A stretch of 64,000 nucleotides of DNA from an uncultured Candidatus Saccharibacteria bacterium. Lineage in GTDB: Bacteria; Patescibacteriota; Doudnabacteria; UBA920. The stretch spans positions 964,048 to 1,028,047 of the forward strand of contig CAYYWQ010000001.1 in the NCBI GenBank assembly GCA_964474825.1. Direction: 5' to 3'. Positions 3,632-59,479 of the stretch are shown one piece after another; within the stretch, counting starts at the first letter, position 1, and every line of letters starts with the position of its first letter. The notes beneath the pieces were generated by a model, which searched no databases, had not been told where the DNA came from, and saw nothing but the letters and a program-made list of their open reading frames with translations. Both the position numbers and the translations under genes were made by a program.

Positions 3632-5866
3632 TCAAACTAAATTCTGATCGTCCTCAATCCCATACTCTGCCTTCTCCTCCGGCGGCACAACTCCGTAAAC
3701 TTCCCGAGGCTTGGCGCCTTCGCCGGGACCAATAATTCCCTGCTGTTCCATAATGTCGAGCAGGCGCGCTGCACGGGCATAACCTACCCGCAGCCTGCGC
3801 TGAAGCAAGCTTGCCGAAGCTTTGCCGGCTCGCCGCACTTCTTCCGTGGCCTCTTGCAAAAGAGGATCGTCGTCGTCACTGCCCTCGCTTTCAAAACCTG
3901 GAATGCCTAAATTGCGCTTGGGCTTTTCTACTATATCTTCATTATAAATTACCGCGCCAACCTGGACTTTAAAGAAATCCACCACTTTTTTAACTTCTTT
4001 TTCACCAATAAACGCGCCCTGGATGCGCTTGGGTTTGTTAAACTCGGCCGATGTAAAAAGCATGTCGCCATTGCCCAAAAGTTTTTCCGCGCCAGAAGAG
4101 TCTAAAATAGTTCTGCTGTCTATTTGGCTAGCTACGGCAAAGGCTATGCGCGAAGTTATGTTGGCTTTAATTAAACCCGTAATAATATCCACGGAAGGAC
4201 GCTGAGTAGCTAACACCAAATGAATACCCACAGCGCGCGCCATTTGCGCCAAGCGCACAATTGCCGCTTCTACGTCTGCCTGGGCCACGGCCATAAGGTC
4301 TGCTAACTCGTCTACCAAAATTACAATGTAAGGCAAAGTTAAAGTATTCTCTGCGTTGTATTCTAAAATATTTCGTTTGCCAACTTCGGAAAGCAATTTA
4401 TAGCGCCTGTCCATTTCAGCCACTGCCCACTTTAAGGAATTCACGGCTTTTTCCGTTTCCGTAATTACGGGCGTGAGCAAATGCGGGATGCCGTTGTACA
4501 AATTCAGCTCAACTCTTTTTGGGTCAATAACAATAAACTTAACGTCTTGCGGTGTGTTGCGGTAGAGCAAAGAAATAAACAAACTATTTATAGCCACACT
4601 TTTCCCGGTACCCGTGGCGCCCGCAATAAGAAGATGCGGCATTTTAGCCAAGTCCACGACCATAGGCAGACCCGCAACATCGCGACCTAAAGCCAAAGCA
4701 AGCTTGCTTTTGTGGTCCACAAATTCTTTGCTTTGCATAACCTCGCGCAAACGGACAATAGCAGTAGACCTGTTTGGCACCTCAAGTCCAACCAAAGCTT
4801 TTCCCGGAATTGGCAATTCCATTCTAATGGAATGCGCGGCCAAAGACAGCGCGAGATCGTTTTGCAAAGCAGCAATTTGGGAAAGCTTAATGCCAACAGA
4901 AGGGCGCAAAGTATACTGCGTTACCGTAGGGCCGACATTAACCTCACCCATTTCTACTTCTATTCCAAAATCCGACAAAGTTTTTTTAACAATAGCCACA
5001 TTGGCTTCTATGTTGCCGCTGTCGACTTCTGTCTGGTTGTCGTCAAGTAAATCAAAACTCGGCAATTTCCAGTCCTTGCGTTCAAGAGGCATGGTTTCTA
5101 TATGCGGGCCTTTAATTTTTTGGGCCGCGTTTATTACAGTGTCTTTGGGTTTAGCCGGAACTACTTCTTCTTCAGTTTCATCGTCTGTTATTTTAGGGTT
5201 TTTATTCGCCACTTTCTCACTAACAAAACCCTGGCTTGCCGGAGTATTTATTTTTAAAACCGGGGTCGGCATTTTTTCCGCTAAAGCCAAAGCTTCGGTG
5301 GATTCTTCTTTCTTTGGCAAAAAAACTTTAAGCGGCACATCAAAAGTAACCAAAATCCCCACAACAAACAAAGCGAACAAAACCAAACTTCCTGCCCAAA
5401 AACCTAAAAATGTAAAAGTCGGATAAGAAAACAAAGCCCCAAAATAGCCGCCGCCCTGGCCTTCAAGCGCCAACTCAAAAGCGCTCACTCCGTCTCCTAA
5501 ACGGAAAAGGTGAATGAGTCCGGTAATGCTCCCGGTTAAAAGCACCGCGCCCAAGTAAGTTCTAAAATAAACACCGCGATGTTCCAGTTGCTGCTCTGTC
5601 TGGCGGTATAAAGAAATGGCTACTATTAAAAATAGCACCGGGACAATATAAACCATTATGCCAAAAACCTGGGACAAAAATTTAAATAAATAATTGCCAA
5701 AACCACCGGCTAAACCCACTAGCGACAAGAGCGACAGCAAAGCTAACAGAACAAAGGCAACAACAACAATGCCGCGCTTTGTCTCATGCGACAAATCCAG
5801 CGCCGGCCCTTTAGCCTTCCGCTCTTTTTTTTCTTCTTTGTCGTAATCCTTTTTGTTTCTACCCAT
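3632..5866 (-). CDS. ftsK: DNA translocase FtsK/SpoIIIE
   Basis: N-terminal multi-TM region, a linker, then a C-terminal motor domain with LLIAGATGTGKSV Walker A and VILVDELADLM Walker B. Confidence 0.9.
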   Translation of the reverse strand: MGRNKKDYDKEEKKERKAKGPALDLSHETKRGIVVVAFVLLALLSLLSLVGLAGGFGNYLFKFLSQVFGIMVYIVPVLFLIVAISLYRQTEQQLEHRGVYFRTYLGAVLLTGSITGLIHLFRLGDGVSAFELALEGQGGGYFGALFSYPTFTFLGFWAGSLVLFALFVVGILVTFDVPLKVFLPKKEESTEALALAEKMPTPVLKINTPASQGFVSEKVANKNPKITDDETEEEVVPAKPKDTVINAAQKIKGPHIETMPLERKDWKLPSFDLLDDNQTEVDSGNIEANVAIVKKTLSDFGIEVEMGEVNVGPTVTQYTLRPSVGIKLSQIAALQNDLALSLAAHSIRMELPIPGKALVGLEVPNRSTAIVRLREVMQSKEFVDHKSKLALALGRDVAGLPMVVDLAKMPHLLIAGATGTGKSVAINSLFISLLYRNTPQDVKFIVIDPKRVELNLYNGIPHLLTPVITETEKAVNSLKWAVAEMDRRYKLLSEVGKRNILEYNAENTLTLPYIVILVDELADLMAVAQADVEAAIVRLAQMARAVGIHLVLATQRPSVDIITGLIKANITSRIAFAVASQIDSRTILDSSGAEKLLGNGDMLFTSAEFNKPKRIQGAFIGEKEVKKVVDFFKVQVGAVIYNEDIVEKPKRNLGIPGFESEGSDDDDPLLQEATEEVRRAGKASASLLQRRLRVGYARAARLLDIMEQQGIIGPGEGAKPREVYGVVPPEEKAEYGIEDDQNLV

Positions 5867-7843: not shown

Positions 7844-8719
7844 TTAGCGAGCGGGCAACAACTCTACATACCTGCCAATTACCCAACCTTGGCTTTTATC
7901 CGCCAGAGTAATGTAATACCAGCCGTTTTGGGTTTTGGTATACACATAGGTTTCGCCGGGGTGCACCTGGGTCAACTGCTTTCCGCTGGTAGTCGGCGCG
8001 TTCCTAACGTTCAAATAACCGGTTGGTGTATTGGTAACTTTAAGCTCTAAAGCGGCGCTCGCGGCCGGAGTCGGGGTAGTAGAAGGGGTTGTGGTGGCGT
8101 TCTGCGTGGGGGTTGGGGTCGGTGTAACTATTGGTGTCGGGGTAACTGTAAGCTCAGGCCTTGTTGGGAACAAACTAAAGCCTCCGCCTGACTGTTTTTT
8201 GCCTTTGTTGTTATACCATAGAAGCACCCCAAAAACGACACAAACCGCCAAAAGTGACATAAGCAAACTCAAACCAATTTTTTTGAAGGAAGATTTTTTC
8301 CCGGGCAAGCTAAGTTTTTGGGCTAAAGGAGCCGGGAAAATTTTTGGTTTAGAAAAAGTAGGCGCGGAGGCAACTTGGGAATCCGCAGGTAAAGTTTCTT
8401 CTATTAATTGTTTCTCAGAGTTGGTTAAAGTAATTTTTGGCGGCACCACCGTACTCTGACTTTGCATCATCCCCTGGTCGGAAATAGGGGTGGTCAACGA
8501 AGGTTCTGACGATTTACCCGCTGAAACATCTGTAACCGGAGTATTGATCCCTTCTACCAAAGGCTTGGGGGTCTTGCGCGCGCGCACCGGCTTAATGTCT
8601 CCGGTGTTAATGGCTTTTGATGGGGCCGCGTCGACTTCCGGAATTAAATCCGACTGGCTATTTTTGTCTTGGCTGTTTGTGTCGTTATCCATACGAGGGA
8701 TAAAAATAATTTTGTTCAA
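7844..8719 (-). CDS. Membrane-anchored protein with Pro/Thr-rich linker and C-terminal SH3b domain
   Basis: Central TM segment (LSLLMSLLAVCVVFGVLLWY), a TPTPTPT linker, and a C-terminal SH3_3-like segment (GYLNVRNAPTTSGKQLTQVHPGETYVYTKTQNGWYYITLADKSQGWVIGRYVELL). Confidence 0.5.
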   Translation of the reverse strand: MNKIIFIPRMDNDTNSQDKNSQSDLIPEVDAAPSKAINTGDIKPVRARKTPKPLVEGINTPVTDVSAGKSSEPSLTTPISDQGMMQSQSTVVPPKITLTNSEKQLIEETLPADSQVASAPTFSKPKIFPAPLAQKLSLPGKKSSFKKIGLSLLMSLLAVCVVFGVLLWYNNKGKKQSGGGFSLFPTRPELTVTPTPIVTPTPTPTQNATTTPSTTPTPAASAALELKVTNTPTGYLNVRNAPTTSGKQLTQVHPGETYVYTKTQNGWYYITLADKSQGWVIGRYVELLPAR

Positions 8720-19945: not shown

Positions 19946-20236
19946 ATGCTAAAAGAGCAAACACCAATGGACATTAGCGCGCTCCAAACGCTTGAAGCGT
20001 GCTGTAAGGGATTTTCGGAAAACTTCTACCTCAAGCGCGAGCGAATTGCCTGGACAGGTTCGCTGGCAACCAACGTGATGCTATTCGAACGGGTTGCCTT
20101 GGGGGGAGCACAACTCATCACGCTCAAACAAACCCTGACCAGACTTCGAAAACAGTACGGTCCTGGGGTCGTGGGTTCAGCTACGATTTGCAGCGCACTC
20201 GAGCAGATCGCGCGGACTCAAGGGGTGACGGTATAA
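19946..20236 (+). CDS. Hypothetical protein in GC-rich (~55%) mini-island
   Basis: Good SD (GGAGGGTGA, 4 nt before ATG). Composition contrasts sharply with the flanking DNA. A GC-rich hairpin terminator follows. Confidence 0.45.
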   Translation: MLKEQTPMDISALQTLEACCKGFSENFYLKRERIAWTGSLATNVMLFERVALGGAQLITLKQTLTRLRKQYGPGVVGSATICSALEQIARTQGVTV

Positions 20237-27858: not shown

Positions 27859-29001
27859 TTACTCAAAAAAATTCTGAATAAGTCCGTTTTTAACAATTTG
27901 CGGCGTGTAACCGCCCTCCCTGTCGCCTGCAGAGTTAACGGTAATACTGCCCGAAGCACCCGGCCAATTTTTTATTGTTCTAGACCAAGCGGCTAATTTT
28001 TCCCCGTTATAGCCAACCTGCTGTATGCCAAATTTTAATAAATAAATGGAGTCGTATTCCGTATGCCCATAACTTTGGTAAGCTAATTCCACTCCATATT
28101 TTTGTTTGTAGTCTTCGAGCAGGTGTTTAGATTTTGGATTGGTTAAATCTAAGACAAACTGCGAGCCTAAGGATCCTTCCAAAAAATCTTTATGGTCTTG
28201 CAAAAACTTTTGATCACCAGCTTCTGTTTCGGTAATAAATAATTGCGGCTTCCAGGCAAGTTCCTCAACCTGCTTAATTATTCTTTCCCCGGCCGGGGGA
28301 GCCTGCGGGTCTATAAATAGAACATCGGGGTTCTGGTTCTTAAGCTTTATTAGCTGTGACCTAAAATCAGTTGAATCAACCGGAAACTCTTCTTTTATAA
28401 CCTCCCCTCCCAAAGCTTCAAAACGTTTTTTAAACGCGCCGTAAATCCCTAAAGGGTAATCTTTTTGCTCCACTATAAAAGCCACTTTGCGGAATCCTTT
28501 CCTGTAAGCGATTTCGGCATCAACCTGTCCCTGACTGTCGTCGCTTGCTACGTTGCGGAAAAAATACGGGCTTATGCCGGTCAACTCCGGACTGGTTGCC
28601 CCGGGCGAAAAAAATAAAACTTTATTTTGCTGCGCAATAGTCACGACTGGAATAGTCACACTGCTGCACAAACTGCCAAGCAGTATTTGCACTTTGTCTA
28701 CATTAATTAATTTTTGCGCGGCACTCGCCCCGTCCTTTCCGCTGCATTTATCGTCTTCAATTATTAATTCCAGTTTTTTGCCGTTTACCCCTCCTTGGCT
28801 GTTTATTTCTTCCACCGCCAGCTGGTAAACATTTTTTGCCGGCTCGCCGTAAATTGCCGCGTCACCGCTAAGAGGCAACAGCACACCAATTTTATAAATT
28901 GTGTCTTGGCTAGTCTGGTATGGTTTAGTTTTAGCTGATATTAGCCAAACCACCAAAACCAAGACAATAAAAATTGCCGTCACCTTCACTTGTTTATTCA
29001 T
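27859..29001 (-). CDS. ABC transporter substrate-binding protein, branched-chain amino acid (LivJ/LivK, Peripla_BP_6) family
   Basis: Signal/TM segment followed by IGVLLPLSGDAAIYGEPAKNVYQLAVEEINSQGGVNGKKLELIIEDDKC. No adjacent permease or ATPase gene. Confidence 0.85.
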   Translation of the reverse strand: MNKQVKVTAIFIVLVLVVWLISAKTKPYQTSQDTIYKIGVLLPLSGDAAIYGEPAKNVYQLAVEEINSQGGVNGKKLELIIEDDKCSGKDGASAAQKLINVDKVQILLGSLCSSVTIPVVTIAQQNKVLFFSPGATSPELTGISPYFFRNVASDDSQGQVDAEIAYRKGFRKVAFIVEQKDYPLGIYGAFKKRFEALGGEVIKEEFPVDSTDFRSQLIKLKNQNPDVLFIDPQAPPAGERIIKQVEELAWKPQLFITETEAGDQKFLQDHKDFLEGSLGSQFVLDLTNPKSKHLLEDYKQKYGVELAYQSYGHTEYDSIYLLKFGIQQVGYNGEKLAAWSRTIKNWPGASGSITVNSAGDREGGYTPQIVKNGLIQNFFE

Positions 29002-29118
29002 AGCATGTTCTTAATAATTAGTGTCATTGAATTTTACATTCAATAACATAACATTATAATAGCTTGATTTATATAGTCAATAATGTATACTAAAAGTGTC
29101 AGCCATAACAACACTTTT

Positions 29119-29856
29119 ATGATACCTATAAATTCGCTAACAAATTTAGGCCTTTCTGCTGTGGAATCTAAATTATATTTAGCGGCTCTTGAGCTAGGAC
29201 AAAGCCTGCCAAAACATTTAGCCGAAAAGGCCGCCATAAAACGACCGACACTTTATGAATTTTTACCTAAGTTATTAGAACAAGGACTGTTAAGCGAAAC
29301 AGTAATTGGCAAACGCAGATATTTAGTGGCGGAAGACCCTGAGGTGTTTTTAGATAAAAAACATTCTGACCTTGCCCAAATAGAGCTACTGGTACCTCAA
29401 CTTAGACTATTGCTGGCTACAGCATCGGTTAAGCCAAAAATAATTTTTTATGAAGGCGTCGAGGGGCTAAAAAAAATTTACCAAGACAATTTGCGGGAAA
29501 ATGAGCCCACCCTGGAATTAGTAGGCATAGACAAAATCCAGCCCGAAATAGAAACCTACATTAACCGTTATTATATTCCGAGCCGCGTAAAAAAACGCAT
29601 TGCTTTAAAAATGCTAATTAGCGGTTCAGAAAAAAATGATTCGTGGAATTACAAAACTGATCCTTATATGCTCCGCGAAACTAAGACAATTTCCAATAAA
29701 TTTTTTCCCATACCAATGGATTGCAATATTTACGGCGACACAGTGGCCTTAGCCGTCTACCGCAGCGACAGCGAACCGATTGGGCTAATAATAAGATCTA
29801 AAGAGATAGCCACAACCATGCGATCACTGTTTAATTTCATTTGGGAAAAGGCCTAA
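29119..29856 (+). CDS. TrmB-family transcriptional regulator (paralog 0)
   Basis: N-terminal winged HTH (ESKLYLAALELGQSLPKHLAEKAAIKRPTLYEFLPKLLEQGLL) plus a TrmB C-terminal domain. Homologous to the ORFs at 52844, 55298 and 58661. Sigma70-like promoter (TTGATT-16-TATACT) upstream. Confidence 0.7.
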   Translation: MIPINSLTNLGLSAVESKLYLAALELGQSLPKHLAEKAAIKRPTLYEFLPKLLEQGLLSETVIGKRRYLVAEDPEVFLDKKHSDLAQIELLVPQLRLLLATASVKPKIIFYEGVEGLKKIYQDNLRENEPTLELVGIDKIQPEIETYINRYYIPSRVKKRIALKMLISGSEKNDSWNYKTDPYMLRETKTISNKFFPIPMDCNIYGDTVALAVYRSDSEPIGLIIRSKEIATTMRSLFNFIWEKA

Positions 29857-50668: not shown

Positions 50669-50745
50669 GGGCGTGTAGCTCAGCTGGTTAGAGCATCAAG
50701 CTTATACCTTGAGGGTCCATGGTTCGAGTCCATGCACGCCCACCA
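50669..50745 (+). tRNA. tRNA-Ile(TAT) (anticodon UAU)
   Basis: Acceptor GGGCGTG/CACGCCC, D-arm GCTC-AGCTGGTTA-GAGC, perfect anticodon stem TCAAG/CTTGA, loop CTTATAC, T-arm CATGG-TTCGAGT-CCATG, and CCA. Terminator hairpin at 50746..50775. Confidence 0.75.
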
Positions 50746-51565: not shown

Positions 51566-52090
51566 ATGAATTTAATGCCTAAATTCCTTGCTATTGCCGC
51601 CGTAACCATTGACGGCAAAATTGCAAAAAACAGCAGCCATATGTCTGACTGGACTTCAAAAGAAGACAAGGTCTTTATGCGCGCGCTGCTAGATAAGTGC
51701 GATGTAGTGGTTGTGGGAAATAATACTTACAAGACGGCGGTTGGACCTTTGAGCAAGAGAAATTGCATAGTTATCAGCCAGTCAGCTGGTAAGCTAATAA
51801 GCAAATCAGCTAGACTAACTTACTGCAAACCAAATAAAACTGAACTTATGAAGCTCCTAAAAACTAAAAGCTACAAGCTAATAGCTATTTTAGGCGGAGC
51901 GCAAACTTACGCTTACTTTTTGGAAAATAATTTACTGGACGAAATATACTTAACTATTGAACCTCTAGTTTTTGGAGAAGGAATAAATTTATTCGCTTCC
52001 GGAAAATCTTTTTTAAAAAAATTCAAACTCGTTAGTGTAAAAAAACTGAACAAGCAAGGAAGCTTGCTGCTAAGATACAAAAAAGATTGA
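51566..52090 (+). CDS. RibD C-terminal/dihydrofolate-reductase-like domain protein
   Basis: AIAAVTIDGKIAKNS...DWTSKEDKVFMRALLDKCDVVVVGNNTY is the RibD_C/DHFR-like fold. Confidence 0.65.
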   Translation: MNLMPKFLAIAAVTIDGKIAKNSSHMSDWTSKEDKVFMRALLDKCDVVVVGNNTYKTAVGPLSKRNCIVISQSAGKLISKSARLTYCKPNKTELMKLLKTKSYKLIAILGGAQTYAYFLENNLLDEIYLTIEPLVFGEGINLFASGKSFLKKFKLVSVKKLNKQGSLLLRYKKD

Positions 52091-52103
52091 GAGAGGCCGC
52101 GTG

Positions 52104-52733
52104 CTACTTGCGGCCCCTCCTTAGATCAATACGCGCGCTGACGTTAAAGTATACCCGGCTTTCGCTTAGCCCGGTCAGGCTAAACCTATAAGCATACGCC
52201 CCGCCGTAGTCCACGCCCCGCCAACTGCCAAGACCAAGACTGAGCCTAGGCCCAAAGTTGTACTGCTTAGGGAGTGTTGAACTGGCTGGCCGCCAGACAG
52301 ACTCCTCTTCGCCGCCCAGCGAAAGCTTTTTCCACACGCGATACTCCACAATCGCGAAGTGGTAAACGCCCGGCTGGGTTACGAAGGCTGTCGGCTCCAC
52401 ATAGACCGAGAGCCGTTTGGTTAACTGCACGCGGCTGCGGACATCAAGAGCCCAAAACCCGCCCTTTTGGCTCCACTGCTTCTGGGCCATAACTTCAACC
52501 CAATTGTTTTTGTCGCCGCGGCCAACACCAAAAAAAATGTTGGCGTTATTTGGTGTTGCGGTGCGGAAGTTAGGAATTCCCCAAACTACTAAATCATAAC
52601 CCTTCCCAACCTCACCGCGAAAATGGAACGCGTCTCGGTTCTGCCAATCCTGGGCGTGTAGACGTGAACACAAAAACCAGGCCATTGCGATTAAAGCAAT
52701 AACTATCCAAACCAAACTTTTATTGCGTCTCAC
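52104..52733 (-). CDS. Signal-peptide protein with outer-membrane beta-barrel-like alternating pattern, in GC-rich (~57%) island
   Basis: Signal peptide MRRNKSLVWIVIALIAMAWFLCSRLHA. Amphipathic alternating-residue strands and a C-terminal aromatic-rich segment (GGAYAYRFSLTGLSESRVYFNVSARIDL). Composition is atypical for this genome. Confidence 0.45.
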   Translation of the reverse strand: MRRNKSLVWIVIALIAMAWFLCSRLHAQDWQNRDAFHFRGEVGKGYDLVVWGIPNFRTATPNNANIFFGVGRGDKNNWVEVMAQKQWSQKGGFWALDVRSRVQLTKRLSVYVEPTAFVTQPGVYHFAIVEYRVWKKLSLGGEEESVWRPASSTLPKQYNFGPRLSLGLGSWRGVDYGGAYAYRFSLTGLSESRVYFNVSARIDLRRGRK

Positions 52734-52843
52734 TGTTCCTCCTTGCCAGAGCCGCCTCTACTTGCCAGCGGATGGGAGTACAGCTTATAATATTTCTATT
52801 GAGTGGCCAACACCACCACAAGATAATATTAACCACCACAATT

Positions 52844-53590
52844 ATGCACCAAGAAATATTGGAAGAATTAGGACTTTCGCCTAACGAAGCAAAAATTTAC
52901 GAATCGCTTGTTGAAAAGGGAGAGTCTTCTGTTAGCGATGTTGCTACCAGTTCGCAAACCCACCGCAGGAATACTTACGACGCTATGAAGCGCCTTGTAG
53001 ACAAAGGCTTAGTTTTTGAAATTCTATCCAGCACCGGCAACCACTATAACGCGGTGGAGCCGGACAAACTTATGGAACTGGTGGCGGAAAAGGAAACTCG
53101 GCTGCGCCACATTTTACCAGACCTAAAAAAGAAATTTCATAGGCGCCTGGCACCGGAAGAAGCTTACATTTACCGCGGATTGGAAGGACAAAAAAATGTT
53201 TTGCGGGACGTGCTAAGAGTTGGTAAAGACAGCTATTTTATTGGCGCCAAAGGCGGCTGGTATGACCCGCGTTTGGAAACTACCCGCAAAGCTTTTTTTG
53301 CGGAAACCAAAAGAAAAAAAATAAAATTCATTCAGTTGTTTGACCACGAAATAAAACTGGAAAAAGATTTCCCTAAATATTTTGAAGGAAATTTAGAATA
53401 CCGGTTCCTGCCCAAACAATACTCCTCAACTTCTGCCATTCATATTTTTGGCGATTACGTGGTGACCTACACCGGAATGACAATTAAAAAATTGGCGGAC
53501 GACATTGTCTTTTTTGTAATTCGCAGTAGCAACTTAGCCGAAGGCTACCGCAAATGGTTTCGGTACATGTGGGACAAAGCGGAAAAATAA
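52844..53590 (+). CDS. TrmB-family transcriptional regulator (paralog 1)
   Basis: wHTH (ILEELGLSPNEAKIYESLVEKGESSVSDVATSSQTHRRNTYDAMKRLVDKGLV) plus a TrmB C-terminal domain. Start at MHQEIL (ATG at 52844). Confidence 0.7.
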   Translation: MHQEILEELGLSPNEAKIYESLVEKGESSVSDVATSSQTHRRNTYDAMKRLVDKGLVFEILSSTGNHYNAVEPDKLMELVAEKETRLRHILPDLKKKFHRRLAPEEAYIYRGLEGQKNVLRDVLRVGKDSYFIGAKGGWYDPRLETTRKAFFAETKRKKIKFIQLFDHEIKLEKDFPKYFEGNLEYRFLPKQYSSTSAIHIFGDYVVTYTGMTIKKLADDIVFFVIRSSNLAEGYRKWFRYMWDKAEK

Positions 53591-53620
53591 AAATTTTCAT
53601 TTTTACATCTCAAAGAAAAA

Positions 53621-53644
53621 GAGCAGGGCCGCGGGGTCCTGCTC
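53621..53644. terminator. GC-rich hairpin terminator (copy 1 of duplicated pair)
   Basis: GAGCAGGGCC-GCGG-GGTCCTGCTC. Near-identical to 56074..56098. Confidence 0.6.
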
Positions 53645-53682
53645 TTTAGAGTTGTGGGGTAAGGTCCCACGGGCCTGCCTTG

Positions 53683-55071
53683 TTATCGGTCGAAAGGCAC
53701 ACACCGGTTTATGAGTTTTGCAACCCAGGAAATGAGGCCGTGGCCGCCCTGGGGAACCAGAGGAGAAGTGGCGCAGCGGCCGGAAGGCGCGTATCTGACA
53801 ATGACAAACAGGTATGCCAGATTCACCAACCAACGCTGCCAGCGTCGCGGGTGAGTAGTTGAGTTCGCGAGCCCGCAAATGTCCAGGTCGTAGAACAGCG
53901 CGGGGTTTTGGATTAGCCCTTCCGCGACTTCAGGGTTTTCATACCAGCCATCATTTCCCGGAAGAATTCCCCGGTAAACATAGGGACGTAAAACCGTGTT
54001 TGGCCAACGGTCAACAAACCAGAAGAACTGAGCAATGGTCTGCAGCAGTCTGAGAAAAACCTTGTCGGAATGCTGACCCATAACAGTGAGAACCTCGGAA
54101 CGCAATCCGAGTTGGTGGGCGAGGTTGTAGGCAGCCTCTATGTCTTCCATCTTGTTTTGCGTTTTTCCTTCCTCATCCCATTCCTCCCTGCTTGTCCCGT
54201 CGACTCCGAACCCAGCGCACCACAAGCCGCTCCGCTGGACAAGTTCGGCAAAGTTTTCGTGCTGCTCGCTGGCAGCCAGAAATGTGCCCATGCAGGTCAG
54301 ACAGCGTGTCCGTAACTGCACACCGGTCTCTTCCTGTTCCTCGGCCATAGCTTTCATATACTGAAATATAGCCTTGGGTGTCTGAAAGAAGTCCAGGTTG
54401 GAAGCGTAGCACTCCAATTTGCAGATCCCAAAGCTCTGGGCCTTTTTCAAAAGGAACCGCAAGTCATTTCGAAAGGCAGTTAGGTCGCGGAAAGTTTCTT
54501 TTTGCCCCTTGGATGCGGAACACCATTTACATTTGTATATGCAACCCTGCGAGAGCACGAGAGAGAATTCGTGTTCCAAATATTTCCGCAGGCGTTCGTT
54601 ACCCATATGCTCCCAAACCGGTTGGTAAGGGATTTCGTAGGCAGAAGGCAACGCGCCGAATAGTTGCGCGTGGTCATTCTCGCTGGCGACCTGAAGAGCG
54701 GTAGTGCCGAACACAGTACGGAACTGCTCTTTGGAGAAATGAGATGTTACTTGGCCACCCAAGACAACTTTTGCGTGCGGATATCGACGTGAGGTTTGCT
54801 TGGCAAATTTGATCGCCCGCGGGATTCCAGGAGAACCCATGACCGAAGCGCCAATTACATCGGCACCGGAGAACAAGCTAGAGACACGCTCGTCGCCGGG
54901 CTTGTCGATGTTGAAATCGACAATATCCACCTTATGGCCAACGGCCATCAATTGCGCAGCTATAGCCACAACAGAACCGGACATGTAAACCTTTTTCCCA
55001 TAAGGGTACCCCAGATCCACCAGGACAACCTTTTGGGGTTTTACCGAAGACTGCAAAATCGTAAAGCTCAT
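53683..55071 (-). CDS. B12-binding domain / radical SAM domain protein (class B radical SAM), paralog 1
   Basis: N-terminal cobalamin-binding-like domain (VVLVDLGY...KVVLGGQVTSH) and a radical-SAM Cys triad GCIYKCKWC (CxxxCxxC). GC ~55%. SD AAGGAGG lies 7 nt upstream of the ATG. Confidence 0.8.
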   Translation of the reverse strand: MSFTILQSSVKPQKVVLVDLGYPYGKKVYMSGSVVAIAAQLMAVGHKVDIVDFNIDKPGDERVSSLFSGADVIGASVMGSPGIPRAIKFAKQTSRRYPHAKVVLGGQVTSHFSKEQFRTVFGTTALQVASENDHAQLFGALPSAYEIPYQPVWEHMGNERLRKYLEHEFSLVLSQGCIYKCKWCSASKGQKETFRDLTAFRNDLRFLLKKAQSFGICKLECYASNLDFFQTPKAIFQYMKAMAEEQEETGVQLRTRCLTCMGTFLAASEQHENFAELVQRSGLWCAGFGVDGTSREEWDEEGKTQNKMEDIEAAYNLAHQLGLRSEVLTVMGQHSDKVFLRLLQTIAQFFWFVDRWPNTVLRPYVYRGILPGNDGWYENPEVAEGLIQNPALFYDLDICGLANSTTHPRRWQRWLVNLAYLFVIVRYAPSGRCATSPLVPQGGHGLISWVAKLINRCVPFDR

Positions 55072-55148
55072 CTGAAGACCTCCTTAAGGTTTTCATAAGG
55101 CTTCTAGAATTGCCTTATCAAAACCCTTAGATTTTGCAGTCTTGGACT

Positions 55149-55182
55149 AGCTAATTTAGCATATTTTTGCTAGATTGTCAAT
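55149..55182. promoter_or_regulatory. Palindromic operator-like motifs AGCTAATTTAGC and ATTGTCAAT in divergent promoter region
   Basis: Both palindromes recur in the homologous intergenic region at 58521..58559. Confidence 0.45.
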
Positions 55183-55259
55183 CTATATGGTCAATTCGTA
55201 TTCTAAATTTCCTTTAAATAAAGCCTTAATTTGTATATACTAGATTTTGTTCAAAGGTG

Positions 55260-55288
55260 TTGACACAAATGAAAAAATAGGCTATACT
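55260..55288 (+). promoter_or_regulatory. Sigma70 consensus promoter TTGACA-17-TATACT (near-leaderless TrmB paralog 2)
   Basis: The -10 ends only 9 nt before the ATG at 55298. Confidence 0.5.
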
Positions 55289-55297
55289 TATATTGCC

Positions 55298-56068
55298 ATG
55301 ATAAATATTCCAAAAAACCTAAGAGATTCGCTTCTTTCTATGAATTTTTCTGAGAAAGAAGCAGACGTGTATCTTGCACTTTTGGAATTGGGCAAAGGAA
55401 CGGTTTCAGTTATTGCGCGTAAGGCAAATTTAAATAGAACCACTGGTTACCATATTTTGGACTCCCTAAGTGCCAAGGGTTTGGTTAGTGTGTCGGGGAA
55501 AGAACCTCTGCAAGAGTTTGTCGCTGAATCACCAGAAAAAATTACTGAACTGCTGCAAAAAAAATTTATTGAGTACGAAAATTATTTAAAGCAGGCCAAA
55601 GAAACTGTACCCCAATTAAAATCTTTTCATAATATTTCGGACAGGCCCAAGGTTAGATTTTACGAAGGCAAGCAAGGCCTAATAGATGTTTACGAAGACA
55701 CCTTAACCTCTCATGAACCACTGCGCGCTTTTGCTAATTTTGACGACATGCACAAAGCGCTGCCCGATTATTTCCCTTCCTATTATTTGCGTCGCTCAAA
55801 AAAAGGTTTAAATATTCGCGGAGTAGTACCAGTAACACCTCAGGCACTGGAACGACAAAAATTTAACAAGGAAGAAGCCAGGGAAATGACATTTGTGCCG
55901 TATGATAAATATTATTTTTCTCCCGAAATAGACATGTATGACAACAAGCTCATGATTGCTTCGTGGAAAGAAAAACTGGGAATAATAATAGAGAGCAAGG
56001 AAATAGCAGATGCCATGAAAAAAATATTTGAACTGGCATGGCTAGGAGCAAAAGCTTTAAATAAATAA
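55298..56068 (+). CDS. TrmB-family transcriptional regulator (paralog 2)
   Basis: MINIPKNLRDSLLSMNFSEKEADVYLALLELGKGTVSVIARKANLNRTTGYHILDSLSAKGLV. Highly similar to paralog 3 at 58661..59479 (for example VRFYEGKQGL..VYEDTLTSHE, MIASWKEKLGIIIESKEIADAMKKIFELAW). Confidence 0.75.
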   Translation: MINIPKNLRDSLLSMNFSEKEADVYLALLELGKGTVSVIARKANLNRTTGYHILDSLSAKGLVSVSGKEPLQEFVAESPEKITELLQKKFIEYENYLKQAKETVPQLKSFHNISDRPKVRFYEGKQGLIDVYEDTLTSHEPLRAFANFDDMHKALPDYFPSYYLRRSKKGLNIRGVVPVTPQALERQKFNKEEAREMTFVPYDKYYFSPEIDMYDNKLMIASWKEKLGIIIESKEIADAMKKIFELAWLGAKALNK

Positions 56069-56073
56069 AAACA

Positions 56074-56098
56074 GAGCAGGGCCGCGGGGGTCCTGCTC
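56074..56098. terminator. GC-rich hairpin terminator (copy 2 of duplicated pair)
   Basis: GAGCAGGGCC-GCGGG-GGTCCTGCTC. Confidence 0.6.
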
Positions 56099-56122
56099 TT
56101 AAAGTTTGGGGACAAGCCCCAA

Positions 56123-58267
56123 TTACAACAAAGTTTGTGCGAACTTGACCGCTTCGGGCCAAGTTTTAAAGTCAGCGTTAATGCCAAGCTCCGTCCGAAT
56201 AACCGTCCTAATTTGTCCGAGGCGGTCATTTAACAAATGCGGAACGTCGGGCTCGGGAGGGTATTGATCGGCCGCAATTGCGGCCATCTCCCGAAGCTCG
56301 GCCCAGGTAAAGCGTGAGCGGTTGACCCACCACGGAATAGTGGAGGTCACTTTATACGCCCAGTGGGTGCGACACGCCTGCTCGAGAATGTCACGGAGGG
56401 CGTCGACCTTGGTGATGGAAGTAACCCTAGTATTGGAAGTACGCAAGTAATCGAAATCACGATTGACCCGCATAGGCTTCTTGTCTTCCAAGACCCGGAT
56501 GTAGTCTGAGTGAGATCCGTTTATCTCCTCCGGTGACAACCGCATGAGGCGGTAGCGACCAGATTTGATAGTTAGGATAGAGTCGCCGTGTTCCGCAAGG
56601 AAACCAATCCACTTAAAACCAACGTGGAGAGGTTCGCCGGGAATACCCACCATGAGAAAGACATGGGTGTGGATTCCGGCATTCTTGAAATTGGCCAGAA
56701 TGGCCCCGTAGTTCTTGGGCTTGTTCCAACCCTTAAACTCCCGGAGCAGCGTATTTGGGTCGAGCGATTCAAGGCCGAGCTGCACTGAGCGGCAGCCGGC
56801 TGTGTAGAGGTCACGGGCAACGGCCGGATCGGTCAACTTACGATTGGCCGGATTCTCCATTGTCACATAGCACTGCCATGTTGCCTCGTAACCAATACGG
56901 CGAAGTTCGGCGCCGAGTTCCAGTTGGAAATCGTAACGGAAGAGCTCATCGACAATGTCGAACTTGCTCTCACCGGTCGCGGCCATGTCCTCCGCAATTT
57001 TCCGCGGCGACATAAAGCGAGGCGCTCCCAAATGCGTGTCGCTCTGCCCCGAAATGGCGCAGAAACCACAGCGCTTGCGACAATTGGAAGCGGTGTAGAG
57101 CGTAAGAACCGGATCGGGCGACCAAGGCTTTGCCTCGCCGTCGAAATGCGGCGTGGGCAAATCCTTAAACTCGGTTGGCGTAGCAGTTGGGGGATTAACT
57201 GTAACCACACCGCTATTCAGCCAAGCAGTTCCCGATGCCGCGCTAGGGTCAAGTGTTGAAACCAATTCCGTGAGTGGCTGATAGCCCTCCCGATAAACAA
57301 TGGCGTCTACGAAGCCGAAAAATTCGACAAACTCTTGCTCGCTAAACGCCTTAGTCAGTCTGGGCCAAATATTTCCGCCGAGAACCACCAGAGTATTAGG
57401 CAACGCTTCCTTTATTAGCGAAGCGAGGACCAGGCCCGGAATGAGTTGCCGTTCGTCGCTGGTAGAAATCCCATATACGTCCGGCTGAAAGTCGCGTGCG
57501 ACCGGCAGCTCAACGTTCATGAAATATTCGTACCAGAGATTCTTTTCGCGAGACATAAGGGCCTTAAGCGTACCCTCAATGCTGCCGTCTTGCGTCGCGC
57601 CTTGGTAGACGACATTATTGCGTTCATAAAAGAACCTGTCCTCTGTTTTTATGTCGCGCGAGATTTGTTCGAACCTGATGCGAGCGGCATAGTAACCCGC
57701 AAGAGTTGGCTTTGCGTTAGGGCCGCGGATGTTGTTGAGCAACTTCTCAACATCCTCCCCGCCGTGCGCCTTGAGCAAATACTCAAGGCCAATAATATGT
57801 CCGTAGCGCTGGCGTACATTGTGCCCCCGCTGGCGAAGCACTGCCGTAAGCTGCGTGGTCCCGCCCGGATGATGCCAAACGGAATACGCGGGAGCGTTAT
57901 ACAGAATGACTTTCCGCGGCTTCATGAGCGCCACCACGGAGAGCAGAGGTTCGGGCTTGATGGCCGTAATCTTGCGGAACGACATAGTAAGCTGTCTCCT
58001 TGGTGTAAGTGGTGTGCGTACATGAGTGGTGTCCAGGATCTGTCTAAAAACCGACACGGGTTCATAGTAAGTCCTGGATTCCCCGACCGGAACCTCGGCC
58101 GTAGCACGGCAGACGCCGTCCTTGTTGGGTGAGAGGCATACCCACGCGGGCACGTTGCCATTTGAGTTCCATCGGCTGTAATACTTCCAGTCAACGGTTA
58201 CCGCGCTCTTTACCTCAATGTTGAAGAGGTTTAGAACACAAAAGATCGCGAGAATTCTGATTTTCAT
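56123..58267 (-). CDS. B12-binding domain / radical SAM domain protein, paralog 2, with ~94-aa N-terminal signal-peptide-like extension and long C-terminal extension
   Basis: Radical-SAM triad NCRKRCGFC and a B12-binding-like region (TLVVLGGNIW). The N-terminus MSFRKITAIKPEP (ATG at 57985, SD AAGGAG 9-10 nt upstream) is homologous to the paralog 1 start MSFTILQSSVKPQ. The in-frame upstream segment starts MKIRILAIFCVLNLFNIEV (ATG at 58267), which overlaps the stop of the upstream small ORF as ATGA. GC ~53%. Confidence 0.75.
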   Translation of the reverse strand: MKIRILAIFCVLNLFNIEVKSAVTVDWKYYSRWNSNGNVPAWVCLSPNKDGVCRATAEVPVGESRTYYEPVSVFRQILDTTHVRTPLTPRRQLTMSFRKITAIKPEPLLSVVALMKPRKVILYNAPAYSVWHHPGGTTQLTAVLRQRGHNVRQRYGHIIGLEYLLKAHGGEDVEKLLNNIRGPNAKPTLAGYYAARIRFEQISRDIKTEDRFFYERNNVVYQGATQDGSIEGTLKALMSREKNLWYEYFMNVELPVARDFQPDVYGISTSDERQLIPGLVLASLIKEALPNTLVVLGGNIWPRLTKAFSEQEFVEFFGFVDAIVYREGYQPLTELVSTLDPSAASGTAWLNSGVVTVNPPTATPTEFKDLPTPHFDGEAKPWSPDPVLTLYTASNCRKRCGFCAISGQSDTHLGAPRFMSPRKIAEDMAATGESKFDIVDELFRYDFQLELGAELRRIGYEATWQCYVTMENPANRKLTDPAVARDLYTAGCRSVQLGLESLDPNTLLREFKGWNKPKNYGAILANFKNAGIHTHVFLMVGIPGEPLHVGFKWIGFLAEHGDSILTIKSGRYRLMRLSPEEINGSHSDYIRVLEDKKPMRVNRDFDYLRTSNTRVTSITKVDALRDILEQACRTHWAYKVTSTIPWWVNRSRFTWAELREMAAIAADQYPPEPDVPHLLNDRLGQIRTVIRTELGINADFKTWPEAVKFAQTLL

Positions 58268-58476
58268 TTTTTTACCTTTCCTAATCCTGACATGCTCACA
58301 GCAACAACACTTGCCAAGCCAAACGTAATACAAACTACTGCCACAGCAGCTCCCACTTGCTGCACAACGACCTCCGCTGTATGGCCGGTGAGCCACAACA
58401 CTGTTACACCTATTGAGAACAATACCCAACTAACCGACCGCAGATATGAGGCTAGCTTTTGTTCTAACTCCTTCAT
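58264..58476 (-). CDS. Small two-TM membrane protein, translationally coupled to radical SAM paralog 2
   Basis: MKELEQKLASYLRSVSWVLFSIGVTVLWLTGH...VVCITFGLASVVAVSMSGLGKVKK. Strong SD AGGAGG 5 nt upstream of the ATG at 58476. Its stop codon TGA overlaps the downstream ATG. Confidence 0.5.
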   Translation of the reverse strand: MKELEQKLASYLRSVSWVLFSIGVTVLWLTGHTAEVVVQQVGAAVAVVCITFGLASVVAVSMSGLGKVKK

Positions 58477-58520
58477 GTGGTCCTCCTTTAGGACTAAGCA
58501 ATCTAACATAAATTGTTAAT

Positions 58521-58559
58521 ATTGTCAATAGTTATTTACTATACTTAAGCTAATTTAGC
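58521..58559. promoter_or_regulatory. Palindromic operator-like motifs ATTGTCAAT and AGCTAATTTAGC (second copy)
   Basis: Same two palindromes as 55149..55182, in the opposite order relative to the flanking genes. Confidence 0.45.
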
Positions 58560-58607
58560 TTATAATTAAAGCTTAAATAGACATTAAAATATTATTGTGA
58601 ATAAATA

Positions 58608-58636
58608 TTGACACAATCTGTTATACAAGCTATAAT
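58608..58636 (+). promoter_or_regulatory. Sigma70 consensus promoter TTGACA-17-TATAAT for TrmB paralog 3
   Basis: Perfect consensus hexamers with a 17-nt spacer. ATG at 58661. Confidence 0.5.
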
Positions 58637-58660: not shown

Positions 58661-59479
58661 ATGCCTCAGAATAATTTTGAATTACAAAAAGCCTTGCTTT
58701 CGTTAAATTTTACGGAAAAAGAAGCCAGTGTTTATTTGGCTTTGCTGGAACTGGGTCAGGGTAGCGTGTCGGAAATTGCCCGGAAGGCGAACATTAACAG
58801 AACTTACGGCTACAATATTCTTTCCACGCTGGCGGGGAAAGGCTTGGTAAATATTTCCGGAAAAGAACCTAAACAGGAATACGCGGCTGAGTCTCCGGAT
58901 AAAATTAAAGATTTGCTAAAAGCGGAAATTATTAAAAATCAGGAATTTTTAAAACAGGCCGACGGAGTCATTCCGCAGTTAAAATCTATTCATAGTATTC
59001 GGGGACGCCCACAGGTCCGCTTTTACGAAGGCAAGGAAGGTCTGCAACAAGTTTATGAAGATACATTAACTTCACATGGAACTATATTGGCTTACGCCAG
59101 CGTGGAAGACGTACACCAAACCCTGCCCGGCTATTTTCCAGATTATTATTTTCGCCGCGCGGACAAAGGCATCCCAATACGCGCAATTTTTCCCGATTCC
59201 CCCGAAGCCGAAGAACTTATTAAATCAAACAAAGCTCAAAAAAGAGAAACAGCATTAGTACCGCCGGACAAGTTTTCTTTTTCTCCGGAAATAAATATTT
59301 ACGACAATAAAGTCATGATTGCCTCTTGGCGGGAGAAGTTAGGGGTCGTTATAGAAAGCGGCGAGATTGCGGACGCAATGAAAAAAATATTTGAACTGGC
59401 GTGGGCTCAAGCGAAGAGTTTAGAAAAAAATATTAAAGCAAAAAATACCCCTAGACAACTAGGAAAAAATCTGCTATAA
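58661..59479 (+). CDS. TrmB-family transcriptional regulator (paralog 3)
   Basis: LSLNFTEKEASVYLALLELGQGSVSEIARKANINRTYGYNILSTLAGKGLV plus a TrmB C-terminal domain. Closest to paralog 2. Confidence 0.75.
   Translation: MPQNNFELQKALLSLNFTEKEASVYLALLELGQGSVSEIARKANINRTYGYNILSTLAGKGLVNISGKEPKQEYAAESPDKIKDLLKAEIIKNQEFLKQADGVIPQLKSIHSIRGRPQVRFYEGKEGLQQVYEDTLTSHGTILAYASVEDVHQTLPGYFPDYYFRRADKGIPIRAIFPDSPEAEELIKSNKAQKRETALVPPDKFSFSPEINIYDNKVMIASWREKLGVVIESGEIADAMKKIFELAWAQAKSLEKNIKAKNTPRQLGKNLL

Follow-up and report, generated by a model that had tools for sequence, protein, structure and literature searches.

Results

A conserved array with variable cargo

The 64-kb stretch of DNA analysed here (the window; contig CAYYWQ010000001.1), from a Doudnabacteria-like genome of the Candidate Phyla Radiation (CPR), contains an array of three genes for TrmB-family regulators interleaved with GC-rich genes, in the following termed cargo, which encode a putative beta-barrel protein and two radical S-adenosylmethionine (SAM) proteins, rSAM1 and rSAM2, the latter coupled to a gene for a small transmembrane (TM) protein (Table 1). 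Each TrmB gene is divergent from one cargo gene and convergent with the next, with a hairpin located between the two stop codons in the pairs TrmB1/rSAM1 and TrmB2/rSAM2. Comparison with relatives identifies the array as a hypervariable, cassette-like locus: the platform, a TrmB gene with its promoter region, is orthologous among relatives whatever the cargo, the cargo of a given slot varies between relatives, and cargo genes without relation to each other end in a common two-hairpin 3' element.

Table 1. Features of the TrmB-cargo array (positions in the window; SD, Shine-Dalgarno sequence; ORF, open reading frame; aa, amino acids)
Feature	Position	Strand	Description
Cargo gene 1, beta-barrel ('outer membrane protein-like'), 209 aa	52104..52733	-	ORF, GC 0.532; N-terminal signal/TM helix and 11-12-strand barrel
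Divergent promoter region cargo 1/TrmB1	52734..52843		SD of cargo 1 and predicted sigma70-like TrmB1 promoter 52762-52791, TTGCCA-18-TATAAT
TrmB1	52844..53590	+	PF01978 54.8 bits; ORF opens 52772, likely start ATG 52844
3' element copy 1	53612..53672	-	H1 53654-53670; H2 53621-53644, then T-run; between convergent stops of rSAM1 and TrmB1
Cargo gene 2, rSAM1, 462 aa	53683..55071	-	B12-binding-like domain and radical SAM core (CIYKCKWC), GC 0.523
rSAM1 5' leader	55072..55150	-	Holds SD; 39-nt palindrome/15-bp hairpin 55088-55126 directly upstream of SD (inverted repeat I13)
Bidirectional promoter platform rSAM1/TrmB2	55153..55288		Predicted by promoter scan
Predicted rSAM1 promoter	55181-55153	-	TTGACA-17-TAAATT
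Predicted TrmB2 promoter	55260-55288	+	TTGACA-17-TATACT
TrmB2	55298..56068	+	PF01978 51.5 bits; ORF opens 55247, likely start ATG 55298
3' element copy 2	56065..56125	-	H1 56106-56122; H2 56074-56098, then T-run; overlaps rSAM2 stop, abuts TrmB2 stop
Cargo gene 3, rSAM2, 714 aa from ATG at 58267	56123..58267	-	GC 0.538 over these coordinates
Small membrane protein, 70 aa	58264..58476	-	Two hydrophobic predicted TM stretches; ATGA overlap with rSAM2 start; own SD AGGAGG
Bidirectional promoter platform small-TM+rSAM2/TrmB3	58500..58636		Predicted by promoter scan
Predicted small-TM+rSAM2 promoter	58528-58500	-	TTGACA-17-TAGATT
Palindrome AGCTAATTTAGCT	58548-58560		Repeat D13; one-mismatch copy at 55149
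Predicted TrmB3 promoter	58608-58636	+	TTGACA-17-TATAAT, 12/12 consensus match
TrmB3	58661..59479	+	PF01978 55.5 bits; divergent from small-TM + rSAM2 operon

The gene order at the locus is gyrA … F420-ligase-like – (Vut_1) – dihydrofolate reductase (DHFR)-like – one to three TrmB-cargo modules – small ORF – RsmI – YebC – RuvC, and the array is syntenic in the Doudnabacteria-like relatives L002/L003, L004/L005, L006, L055, L056, L067, L099 and L110, whereby the full bracket from F420-ligase/DHFR to RsmI-YebC-RuvC refers to those relatives whose contigs reach far enough. Among named organisms, Candidatus Doudnabacteria and other Patescibacteria come closest; GyrA of the relatives is 86-89% identical to that of the window and synonymous sites are near saturation, the fraction of identical codons being only 0.03-0.13 above chance. 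The array is old and not recently inserted, because it is syntenic with relatives that have diverged to this extent. A recent insertion into this genome, to which a strict reading of an earlier note on this DNA would lead, is not supported, as the array, the rSAM1 leader and the 3' element are common to relatives with saturated synonymous sites. The comparison with syntenic relatives proposed in the same note finds the array, rSAM1, rSAM2 and the beta-barrel gene at the same site (L002-L006, L008, L055, L056, L110), with differences confined to single slots.

The slot at TrmB1 holds the beta-barrel gene (window, L008, L055) or a gene for an unrelated 159- or 200-aa signal-peptide protein (L004, L110). 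At TrmB2, rSAM1 (window, L004, L055, L110) can be replaced by a 189-aa ORFan plus a toxin-antitoxin pair (L008) or by a 125-aa ORFan (L056), and the third slot is occupied by rSAM2 (window, L002, L006, L056, L110) or by a distant rSAM1 paralog (L004). L067 and L099 possess a single module with membrane and helix-turn-helix (HTH) proteins, and several cargo genes are stacked in one slot in L057, L059, L099 and L110.

Base composition and codon usage

A 300-bp sliding profile displays three GC plateaus of 0.50-0.59 at 52050-52650, 53550-55050 and 56100-58200, separated by stretches of 0.30-0.45, in a window with a mean GC of 0.424 whose remaining 1-kb bins all are at or below 0.49. The GC content and the GC content at third codon positions (GC3) are 0.532 and 0.590 for segment 52104-52733, 0.523 and 0.594 for 53683-55071, and 0.533 and 0.609 for 56123-58429, all on the minus strand, as compared to mostly 0.33-0.48 and 0.30-0.54, respectively, in the other ~55 ORFs of the window and a GC of 0.38-0.42 in the TrmB genes. 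Relative to equal-length windows elsewhere in the sequence, none of which is as high, the three segments have z-scores of 3.3, 4.5 and 6.3. The dinucleotide signature delta* of the two rSAM segments (133 and 146) lies outside the null range of 54-65 (p<=0.005), while the beta-barrel segment (p=0.56) is, with 630 bp, too short for this test. Sliding-window GC, GC and GC3 per gene and the z-scores consequently bear out the mosaic of GC-rich segments that the earlier note described, with a background of ~42% instead of the 36-40% given there.

Compared to the background, cargo proteins contain less lysine (9.0 to 4.9%) and isoleucine (7.9 to 4.7%) and more arginine (3.4 to 7.1%), with tryptophan and proline also elevated. 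Among the codon fractions, AAG rises from.25 to.63, GAG from.21 to.54, TTC from.18 to.51, ATC from.08 to.29, CTC from.06 to.29 and GTC from.10 to.28, and TTA declines from.31 to.05. About half of the GC excess of the cargo derives from amino acid composition and about half from synonymous codon choice. Amino acid bias as the sole cause, named in the earlier note as part of the result that would speak against acquisition, is rejected, since cargo proteins recoded with background codon preferences reach a GC of only 0.47-0.49, versus 0.52-0.54 observed and a background mean of 0.42, so that the share of the bias in the excess is only about one half.

In a leave-one-out codon log-likelihood test, island-like scores were restricted to rSAM1 and rSAM2, both with a positive ratio, and a small ORF at 19946; the beta-barrel gene ranks near the top of the background range. 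The small TM gene, assigned to the GC island in the earlier note, is indeed coupled to rSAM2 by the ATGA overlap, but is not enriched in GC at 4-fold degenerate (synonymous) sites.

The ORF at 19946-20236 on the plus strand (96 aa, GC 0.533) is another small GC-rich gene, the fourth, and has the most island-like codon usage in the window (log-likelihood ratio +0.175); it is preceded by its own predicted TTGACA promoter and followed by a GC-rich hairpin terminator, matches no Pfam family and does not adjoin a TrmB gene. A gene with similarity to pilins of type IV secretion systems (PF18895; 41725-42123, minus strand) has a ratio of -0.007, near the island range, unlike its neighbours.

The composition of the cargo is not peculiar to this genome. 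Doudnabacteria-like hosts, with a background GC3 of 0.31-0.53, rarely use TTC, CTC, AAG and GAG in the background and frequently in the cargo, and correlations of relative synonymous codon usage across these hosts are 0.78-0.94 between cargo and cargo versus 0.43-0.75 between cargo and host. One non-host codon and amino acid signature is common to the cargo of every Doudnabacteria-like host. In a broader set of 31 CPR and DPANN loci, GC3 of rSAM2 homologs follows the GC3 of the flanks with a slope of 0.49 and crosses the diagonal at 0.61; it is above the flanks in 14 of 14 AT-rich hosts and, by a mean of +0.137 (p=0.0005), above the GC3 of the partner TrmB gene in 12 of 12 pairs, which span CPR classes. 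At the actinomycete loci listed, the overall GC of the rSAM2 homolog is below that of the flanks in 17 of 17 cases, with a mixed picture for GC3, which is above the flanks about as often as below. GC-richness as a general trait of genes adjacent to TrmB can be dismissed, the mean difference over 33 independent pairs of TrmB and divergent neighbour being +0.004 (p=0.83).

Conserved elements at the 3' and 5' ends of the cargo

The 3' element is bipartite: a short first hairpin, H1, with the consensus GTGGGAGCCTCATCCCYGC is joined by the linker ACTTAAAAAG to a second, stronger one, H2, whose CAGG…CCTG core is invariant, and a T-run follows. H2, which comprises a 10-bp stem and a 4-5-nt loop followed by TTTTTCTTT or TGTTTTTATTT on the minus strand, is the hairpin that the earlier note had recognised at the ends of both radical SAM segments. 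It is present after both genes, as GAGCAGGGCCGCGGGGTCCTGCTC in copy 1 and, near-identical with one extra G, as GAGCAGGGCCGCGGGGGTCCTGCTC in copy 2; further copies were not found in the 64 kb, where none is expected by chance. As judged from its sequence, the element fits the anatomy of a Rho-independent terminator, a GC-rich stem-loop with a U-run on the transcribed strand. In the relatives, every cargo gene ends with a GC-rich stem-loop and a T-run.

A covariance model, R1, built from seven copies of the element scores copy 1, which folds with -29 kcal/mol, at 66.6 bits and copy 2 at 61.1 bits, and finds eight more copies at E<0.01 after unrelated cargo, namely genes for proteins of 125, 126, 131, 149, 151, 189 and 190 aa and an rSAM1 paralog. 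R1 matches are located downstream of a cargo stop on the sense strand in 15 of 16 cases at E<0.01 and in 13 of 14 at E<0.001. Thirteen of the 15 lie within 50 nt of the stop, including three that begin at the very end of the ORF or slightly within it, and the other two at 152 and 221 nt; the single exceptional match overlaps a tRNA gene. Both helices are supported by covariation: in the 14 best matches 88.8% of cells pair versus 68% in shuffles, and, in an alignment that was fitted to model R1, 10 of 14 base pairs show a compensatory change with a covariation score of 0.578 (shuffles 0.20, slid controls 0.05-0.21). Stacked cargo genes can likewise be separated by a copy of the element, which in L002 follows the 126-aa gene and in L059 the 151-aa gene.

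The two H2 copies of the window, 2.4 kb apart, share the stem GAGCAGG…CCTGCTC and are alike at 24 of 25 positions. This near-identity most likely reflects homogenisation between two members of the 3'-element family within this genome rather than a common donor, because the elements of the rSAM1 orthologs in L004, L055 and L110 have another version of the stem, AGACAGG…CCTGTCT. The suggestion that the hairpin is part of a transferred cassette holds insofar as it belongs to a conserved element at the 3' ends of many unrelated cargo genes, but a shared donor is not shown thereby. In L055, an ORF for a 43-aa hydrophobic peptide with its own SD (4790-4925, plus strand), absent from the window, lies between the stop of the rSAM1 ortholog and the 3' element.

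At the other end of the gene, the ~80-nt leader of rSAM1 is nearly invariant across six rSAM1-type genes whose proteins are only 41-75% identical. The loop of the leader hairpin varies, being TTCTAGAA or TACTAGTA, with the palindrome preserved either way, and a 14-nt segment of the leader (55130-55143) is perfectly complementary to rSAM1 codons 4-9 (55047-55060). No Rfam family matches the leader, and the region is without a match at gathering thresholds. The leader is a candidate operator or translational control element.

TrmB regulators and their promoter regions

All three TrmB proteins exceed the PF01978 cut-off of 25.6 bits. TrmB2 and TrmB3 are 61% identical, and TrmB1 is 24-25% identical to either. 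TrmB1 shares 62-65% identity with its orthologs in L004, L008 and L110, TrmB2 84-89% with those in L004, L008, L055, L056 and L110, which are 84-94% identical among themselves, and TrmB3 88% with the ortholog in L056 and 79% with that in L002. The AT-rich regions between divergent genes hold strong back-to-back promoters, all of them predicted by sigma70-like consensus: the region at cargo 1/TrmB1 is orthologous in L110 and L008, although the cargo of L110 differs, the rSAM1/TrmB2 platform in L110, L004, L008 and L056 regardless of cargo, and the TrmB3 platform in L056, L002 and L006. Between relatives with different cargo, homology stops just downstream of the predicted promoter on the cargo side. 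That the regulators are residents, as the earlier note had it, is borne out by TrmB2 and TrmB3 orthologs of 79-89% identity at the same place and by the orthologous promoter regions. The association extends beyond this clade, as a TrmB gene is located directly upstream of rSAM2 homologs across CPR classes, including Uhrbacteria, Parcubacteria and Paceibacterota, and divergent from them in all but one case.

An operator conserved across relatives was not identified. The palindrome at 58548 was considered as a conserved TrmB operator and rejected, being without exact match in 135 loci and not kept in the relatives, with two-mismatch matches in the window near chance. Equivalence to the characterised regulators TrmB, TrmBL1 and TrmBL2 is not indicated by the NCBIfam equivalog scores of 17-31 bits, the cut-offs being 500-650.

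Two observations concern TrmB genes and their surroundings more generally. A fourth TrmB paralog of the window (29083-29856, plus strand) is divergent from a Peripla_BP_6 solute-binding gene of ordinary GC (27859-29001, minus strand), a pairing of TrmB and binding protein also present in the metagenome loci L060 and L116. In L056, a GC-rich hairpin (…CCCTCCC…GGGAGGG…) occurs in the 5' untranslated regions (UTRs) of both the TrmB2 and the TrmB3 ortholog (~3120-3160 and ~7950-7990), another short GC-rich hairpin doubled within one array.

Products of the cargo genes

The beta-barrel protein, without match in Pfam or NCBIfam, belongs to a family of ~70 cluster representatives, and its orthologs adjoin the TrmB1 orthologs in L008 and L055. 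An AlphaFold2 model from a 46-sequence alignment (pLDDT 93.6) has one N-terminal helix and 11 DSSP strands, with the 12-strand porins KdgM/NanC as top Foldseek matches in the PDB (TM-score ~0.5, E ~2e-3). CPR bacteria are generally regarded as devoid of an outer membrane, and a barrel as confidently modelled as this would be an unexpected envelope protein for such a group. The second, unrelated cargo family in the beta-barrel slot of relatives (L004 12330-12809; L110 4921-5523) comprises proteins of 159-200 aa with a signal-like N-terminus and a GYTW end.

rSAM1 matches PF02310 with 35.7 bits (cut-off 32.1) and PF04055 with 20.9 bits, below the cut-off of 29.5. Its homologs with a named organism are from Patescibacteria, such as Doudnabacteria, its orthologs in the same slot of L004, L055 and L110 are 64-65% identical, and a match in the PDB was not found. 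rSAM2 possesses an N-terminal signal-like helix, a variable Cys-containing segment of ~95 aa and a class-B-like radical SAM core from 57985 (CRKRCGFC); it matches PF04055 with 43.8 bits and, weakly, PF02310 with 19.7 bits. The three cysteines of the CX3CX2C motif are invariant in the rSAM2 alignment, and the N-terminal extension is kept in the closest homologs. Matches to PhpK (55 bits, cut-off 600) and to the C-methyltransferase rSAM_ocin_1 of ribosomally synthesized and post-translationally modified peptides (RiPPs; 51 bits, cut-off 282) are weak and that to TokK is faint (E=0.005), and assignment of rSAM1 or rSAM2 to a named class B subfamily (PhpK, RiPP C-methyltransferase, HpnR, TokK) was discarded with scores far below every curated cut-off.

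The two radical SAM proteins, which the earlier note called paralogs, match each other by BLASTP over 56 residues only (E=0.004); they are not close paralogs, and copies of one cassette are not supported. The homology search it had recommended returns CPR/Patescibacteria, for example Candidatus Doudnabacteria, the closest homologs of both proteins all being CPR. More widely, rSAM2 homologs have a patchy spread over CPR classes, Woesearchaeota and actinomycetes, with 44-47% identity in the last. In Kitasatospora/Actinomadura (L044 8210-9616; L030 8231-9580), the rSAM2 homolog is directly preceded by a gene of glutamate-cysteine ligase family 2 (GCS2), and a TrmB neighbour was not found at these two loci; followed as a functional lead, the conserved GCS2 gene gave nothing usable.

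The small TM protein is 37% identical over 40 aa to the product of an 87-aa gene at the same place in L056. Among the other cargo families of relatives, Pfam returned one match, to an EamA transporter, and nothing for nine other queries.

Search for mobility functions

Pfam domains of integrases or transposases were found neither in the window genes examined nor in the annotated 10 kb to either side of L002-L006 and L055, in a search that was not exhaustive; an IntI-type tyrosine recombinase was equally missing from the annotated neighbourhoods of relatives and the scanned ORFs of the window. Direct repeats flanking the array were not found. A tRNA-Ile gene is 1.4 kb away, with two housekeeping genes in between. 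Carriage of rSAM2 by phages or plasmids was considered and rejected: IMG/VR holds no relatives, GenBank phages no matches, and the PLSDB plasmids only distant ones of at most 28% identity, mostly to generic radical SAM or unannotated genes. A 36-mer of the rSAM1 leader has no exact match in viral contigs, and the 14-mer GGGAGCCTCATCCC has at least 120 single scattered exact matches there, which were taken as chance and are uninformative. In the literature on Patescibacteria/CPR with radical SAM, TrmB or B12, a description of this locus was not found.

Other features of the window

A tRNA-Phe(GAA) gene at 38196-38510 (plus strand) is apparently split after the anticodon by a group I intron, with the 5' exon GCCTCGGTAGCTCATTGGTAGAGCGTCGCCCTGAA and a 3' exon ending in …TCAGTTCGATTCTGACCCGAGGCACCA; the Rfam family Intron_gpI matches at 38218-38468 with 76 bits, and the split tRNA is not called by ARAGORN. 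The tRNA-Ile gene (50669-50745, plus strand), just upstream of the F420-ligase-like gene, has the anticodon UAU, which is to our knowledge uncommon in bacteria.

Discussion

Our reading of the three GC-rich segments is that they are cargo, one segment for each of three modules placed in tandem at a hypervariable yet conserved site of this Doudnabacteria-like CPR genome. A module consists of a resident platform, the TrmB-family gene with a ~150-230-bp AT-rich bidirectional promoter region, and of a divergent cargo unit with 5' UTR, ORF(s) and the conserved T-tailed two-hairpin 3' element. Cargo units could be exchanged horizontally and continually into the resident TrmB platform from a CPR-wide pool with a GC3 near 0.6, a proposition to which we assign even chances. 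The likeliest route of exchange would be homologous recombination, for which the conserved sequences on both sides of each cargo unit (TrmB, promoter and terminator) would serve as anchors; once in place, the cargo would be expressed from the platform promoter and controlled by the adjacent TrmB. The site is best read as a long-lived gene-swapping locus and not as a fresh foreign insertion, because foreign-looking cargo in an old conserved locus differs between relatives.

The relationships of rSAM2 are of particular relevance in this context. L056 and L110 are 93% identical in TrmB2 and 84% in F420 ligase, yet 56% in rSAM2, with the rSAM2 of L056 being 74% identical to that of the window; TrmB and rSAM2 disagree on the position of L002 and L006, and L019 and L012 are likewise discordant. 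The rSAM2 genes of relatives with closely related hosts belong to different sublineages. Distance matrices of TrmB and rSAM2 correlate moderately, with a Mantel r of 0.53 (p = 0.013), and the history of rSAM2 matches that of TrmB only in part. With respect to the original proposal of horizontally acquired cargo beside resident regulators, the compositionally non-host cargo, the slots with differing cargo and the rSAM2 sublineages favour acquisition, whereas recent arrival, paralogs from one cassette and a shared donor are not supported.

Several points weigh against continual exchange. The pairing of TrmB and rSAM2 is ancient and partly co-diverging. The rSAM1 orthologs share a clade-specific 5' leader and 3' element, and this cargo has therefore long been inside this clade. 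Synonymous sites are saturated, yet GC3 is high in every host, which neutral import followed by amelioration does not predict unless import is continual. The null result for the GC of TrmB neighbours in general (n=33, p=0.83) points in the same direction, as does the failure to find a recombinase, transposase, flanking direct repeats or a plasmid or phage copy at the locus or in the collections searched. A swap event or breakpoint was not seen directly, the relatives compared being without a near-identical pair that differs by one cargo unit.

These points lead to the alternative that the cargo genes are long-term, essentially vertical residents in which selection maintains a GC-rich amino acid and codon composition, for example with Arg/Trp-rich enzymes and host-rare codons (AAG, GAG, NTC) limiting or conditioning translation beside the control by TrmB and leader. 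The consistent elevation of rSAM2 GC3 over the partner TrmB, the correlated distances, the half of the GC excess that stems from amino acids, the persistence of the signature despite synonymous saturation, the rSAM1 leader and 3' element conserved along with the cargo across relatives and the failure to find mobility genes at the locus are in line with such a constraint. However, the same signature is common to unrelated cargo families, two rSAMs, a beta-barrel and several ORFans, and is therefore hard to ascribe to protein-specific needs, slots hold different cargo in relatives, and the discordance of rSAM2 in L056/L110 and of L002 versus L006 is not accounted for. Moreover, the GC3 of the rSAM2 family follows that of the host with a slope of ~0.5, and in actinomycetes, where GC3 is mixed, overall GC falls below the flanks, which looks like regression to a pool mean, and selection of a whole gene set for non-optimal codons is rare. 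Constraint, including the translational variant, is the main rival explanation and a serious one, although we consider it less likely than exchange. Far less credible, and indeed very improbable, is that cargo and hairpin came recently and repeatedly from a distant GC-rich donor such as an actinomycete. The atypical composition, the actinomycete rSAM2 homologs and the tRNA-Ile gene upstream at 50669 might be cited for it, but in synonymously saturated relatives each slot in question is filled by the same genes with the same leader and 3' element, the closest homologs are all CPR, integrase and flanking repeats were not found, and actinomycete genomes are not obvious sources because the overall GC of their rSAM2 homologs is below the flanks, GC3 not being consistently lower. 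In its strict form this scenario is essentially refuted by synteny.

The anatomy of the modules also brings to mind integrons. Promoterless ORFs with the ~60-nt two-hairpin element in the role of attC would be inserted and excised downstream of the platform promoter by an unidentified recombinase, an explanation that we hold to be decidedly unlikely. A platform promoter followed by variable ORFs that each end in a structurally conserved imperfect hairpin element, the presence of this element between stacked cargo and the capacity of a slot for several cargo genes (L057, L059, L099, L110) resemble such capture; on the contrary, the precomputed Pfam annotation of the neighbourhoods and the window genes examined contain no recombinase, a GC stem plus T-run is what an ordinary intrinsic terminator consists of, every slot comes with a TrmB gene and a promoter of its own in place of one platform for the whole array, and free or circular cassettes or duplicates elsewhere were not seen. 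An integron in the defining sense would require an IntI, and none was found in the annotated neighbourhoods of relatives or the scanned ORFs of the window. A related, more speculative conception, an improbable one in our estimate, is an integrase-less or unknown-recombinase cassette system of Doudnabacteria-like CPR, in which TrmB platforms would dock, stack and swap GC-rich units bounded by the transcription start and the two-hairpin element, the units retaining a pool-specific, non-host codon signature and the element combining a recombination or recognition site with a terminator.

How CPR/Patescibacteria, with their tiny genomes, come by accessory functions and regulate them is little understood. 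Here, at a fixed chromosomal site, regulators and promoters stay while enzymes and envelope proteins turn over, and the foreign-looking composition is kept across hosts more than 0.2 apart in GC3. If cargo is truly exchanged, the locus offers a simple marker by which gene flow between CPR lineages can be tracked, and it is a source of novel genes under common regulation, with two radical SAM families and a beta-barrel; if not, it is an unusually clear example of genes that retain a codon composition of their own against the mutational bias. In either case the 5' leader palindrome and the two-hairpin 3' element are gained as new conserved non-coding elements. The puzzle left is a non-host codon signature that lasts despite saturated synonymous divergence.

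Comparison with known systems

The components of the locus have counterparts in characterised proteins. Like the KdgM/NanC porins, the beta-barrel protein is predicted to form an antiparallel barrel of 11-12 strands and comparable size, along with a signal-like helix, although at a TM-score of only ~0.5, without a sequence-family match and in a CPR host. With class B radical SAM methyltransferases (TokK, PhpK, HpnR, RiPP C-methyltransferases) the rSAM proteins share a predicted N-terminal Rossmann-like B12-binding domain and CX3CX2C core, but they stay far below the subfamily cut-offs, and the rSAM2 group has in addition the signal-like helix and the variable Cys segment. The regulators possess the N-terminal PF01978 winged-helix of TrmB proteins and are likewise divergent from the presumed target with a shared promoter region, whereas the characterised TrmB, TrmBL1 and TrmBL2, which are archaeal and sugar-sensing, are remote by equivalog score.

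As a system, the locus resembles integrons in a conserved platform that would give the promoter, in mostly single-ORF cargo with ~60-nt imperfect-hairpin ends, in non-host composition and in the stacking of units. It differs from them in that no integrase was found, in the regulator (a TrmB-family HTH protein) and bidirectional promoter of each slot and in the terminator-like element with its T-run. Hypervariable surface-polysaccharide loci, such as the O-antigen cluster between galF and gnd and the pneumococcal cps locus between dexB and aliA, equally combine a fixed site and conserved flanks with interchangeable content whose atypical composition persists across strains and species, and their exchange is thought to proceed by homologous recombination in the conserved flanks. 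While those loci are typically AT-rich in GC-richer genomes and dedicated to one coherent pathway, the cargo described here is GC-rich in AT-rich genomes and made up of functionally heterogeneous small units with their own regulators.

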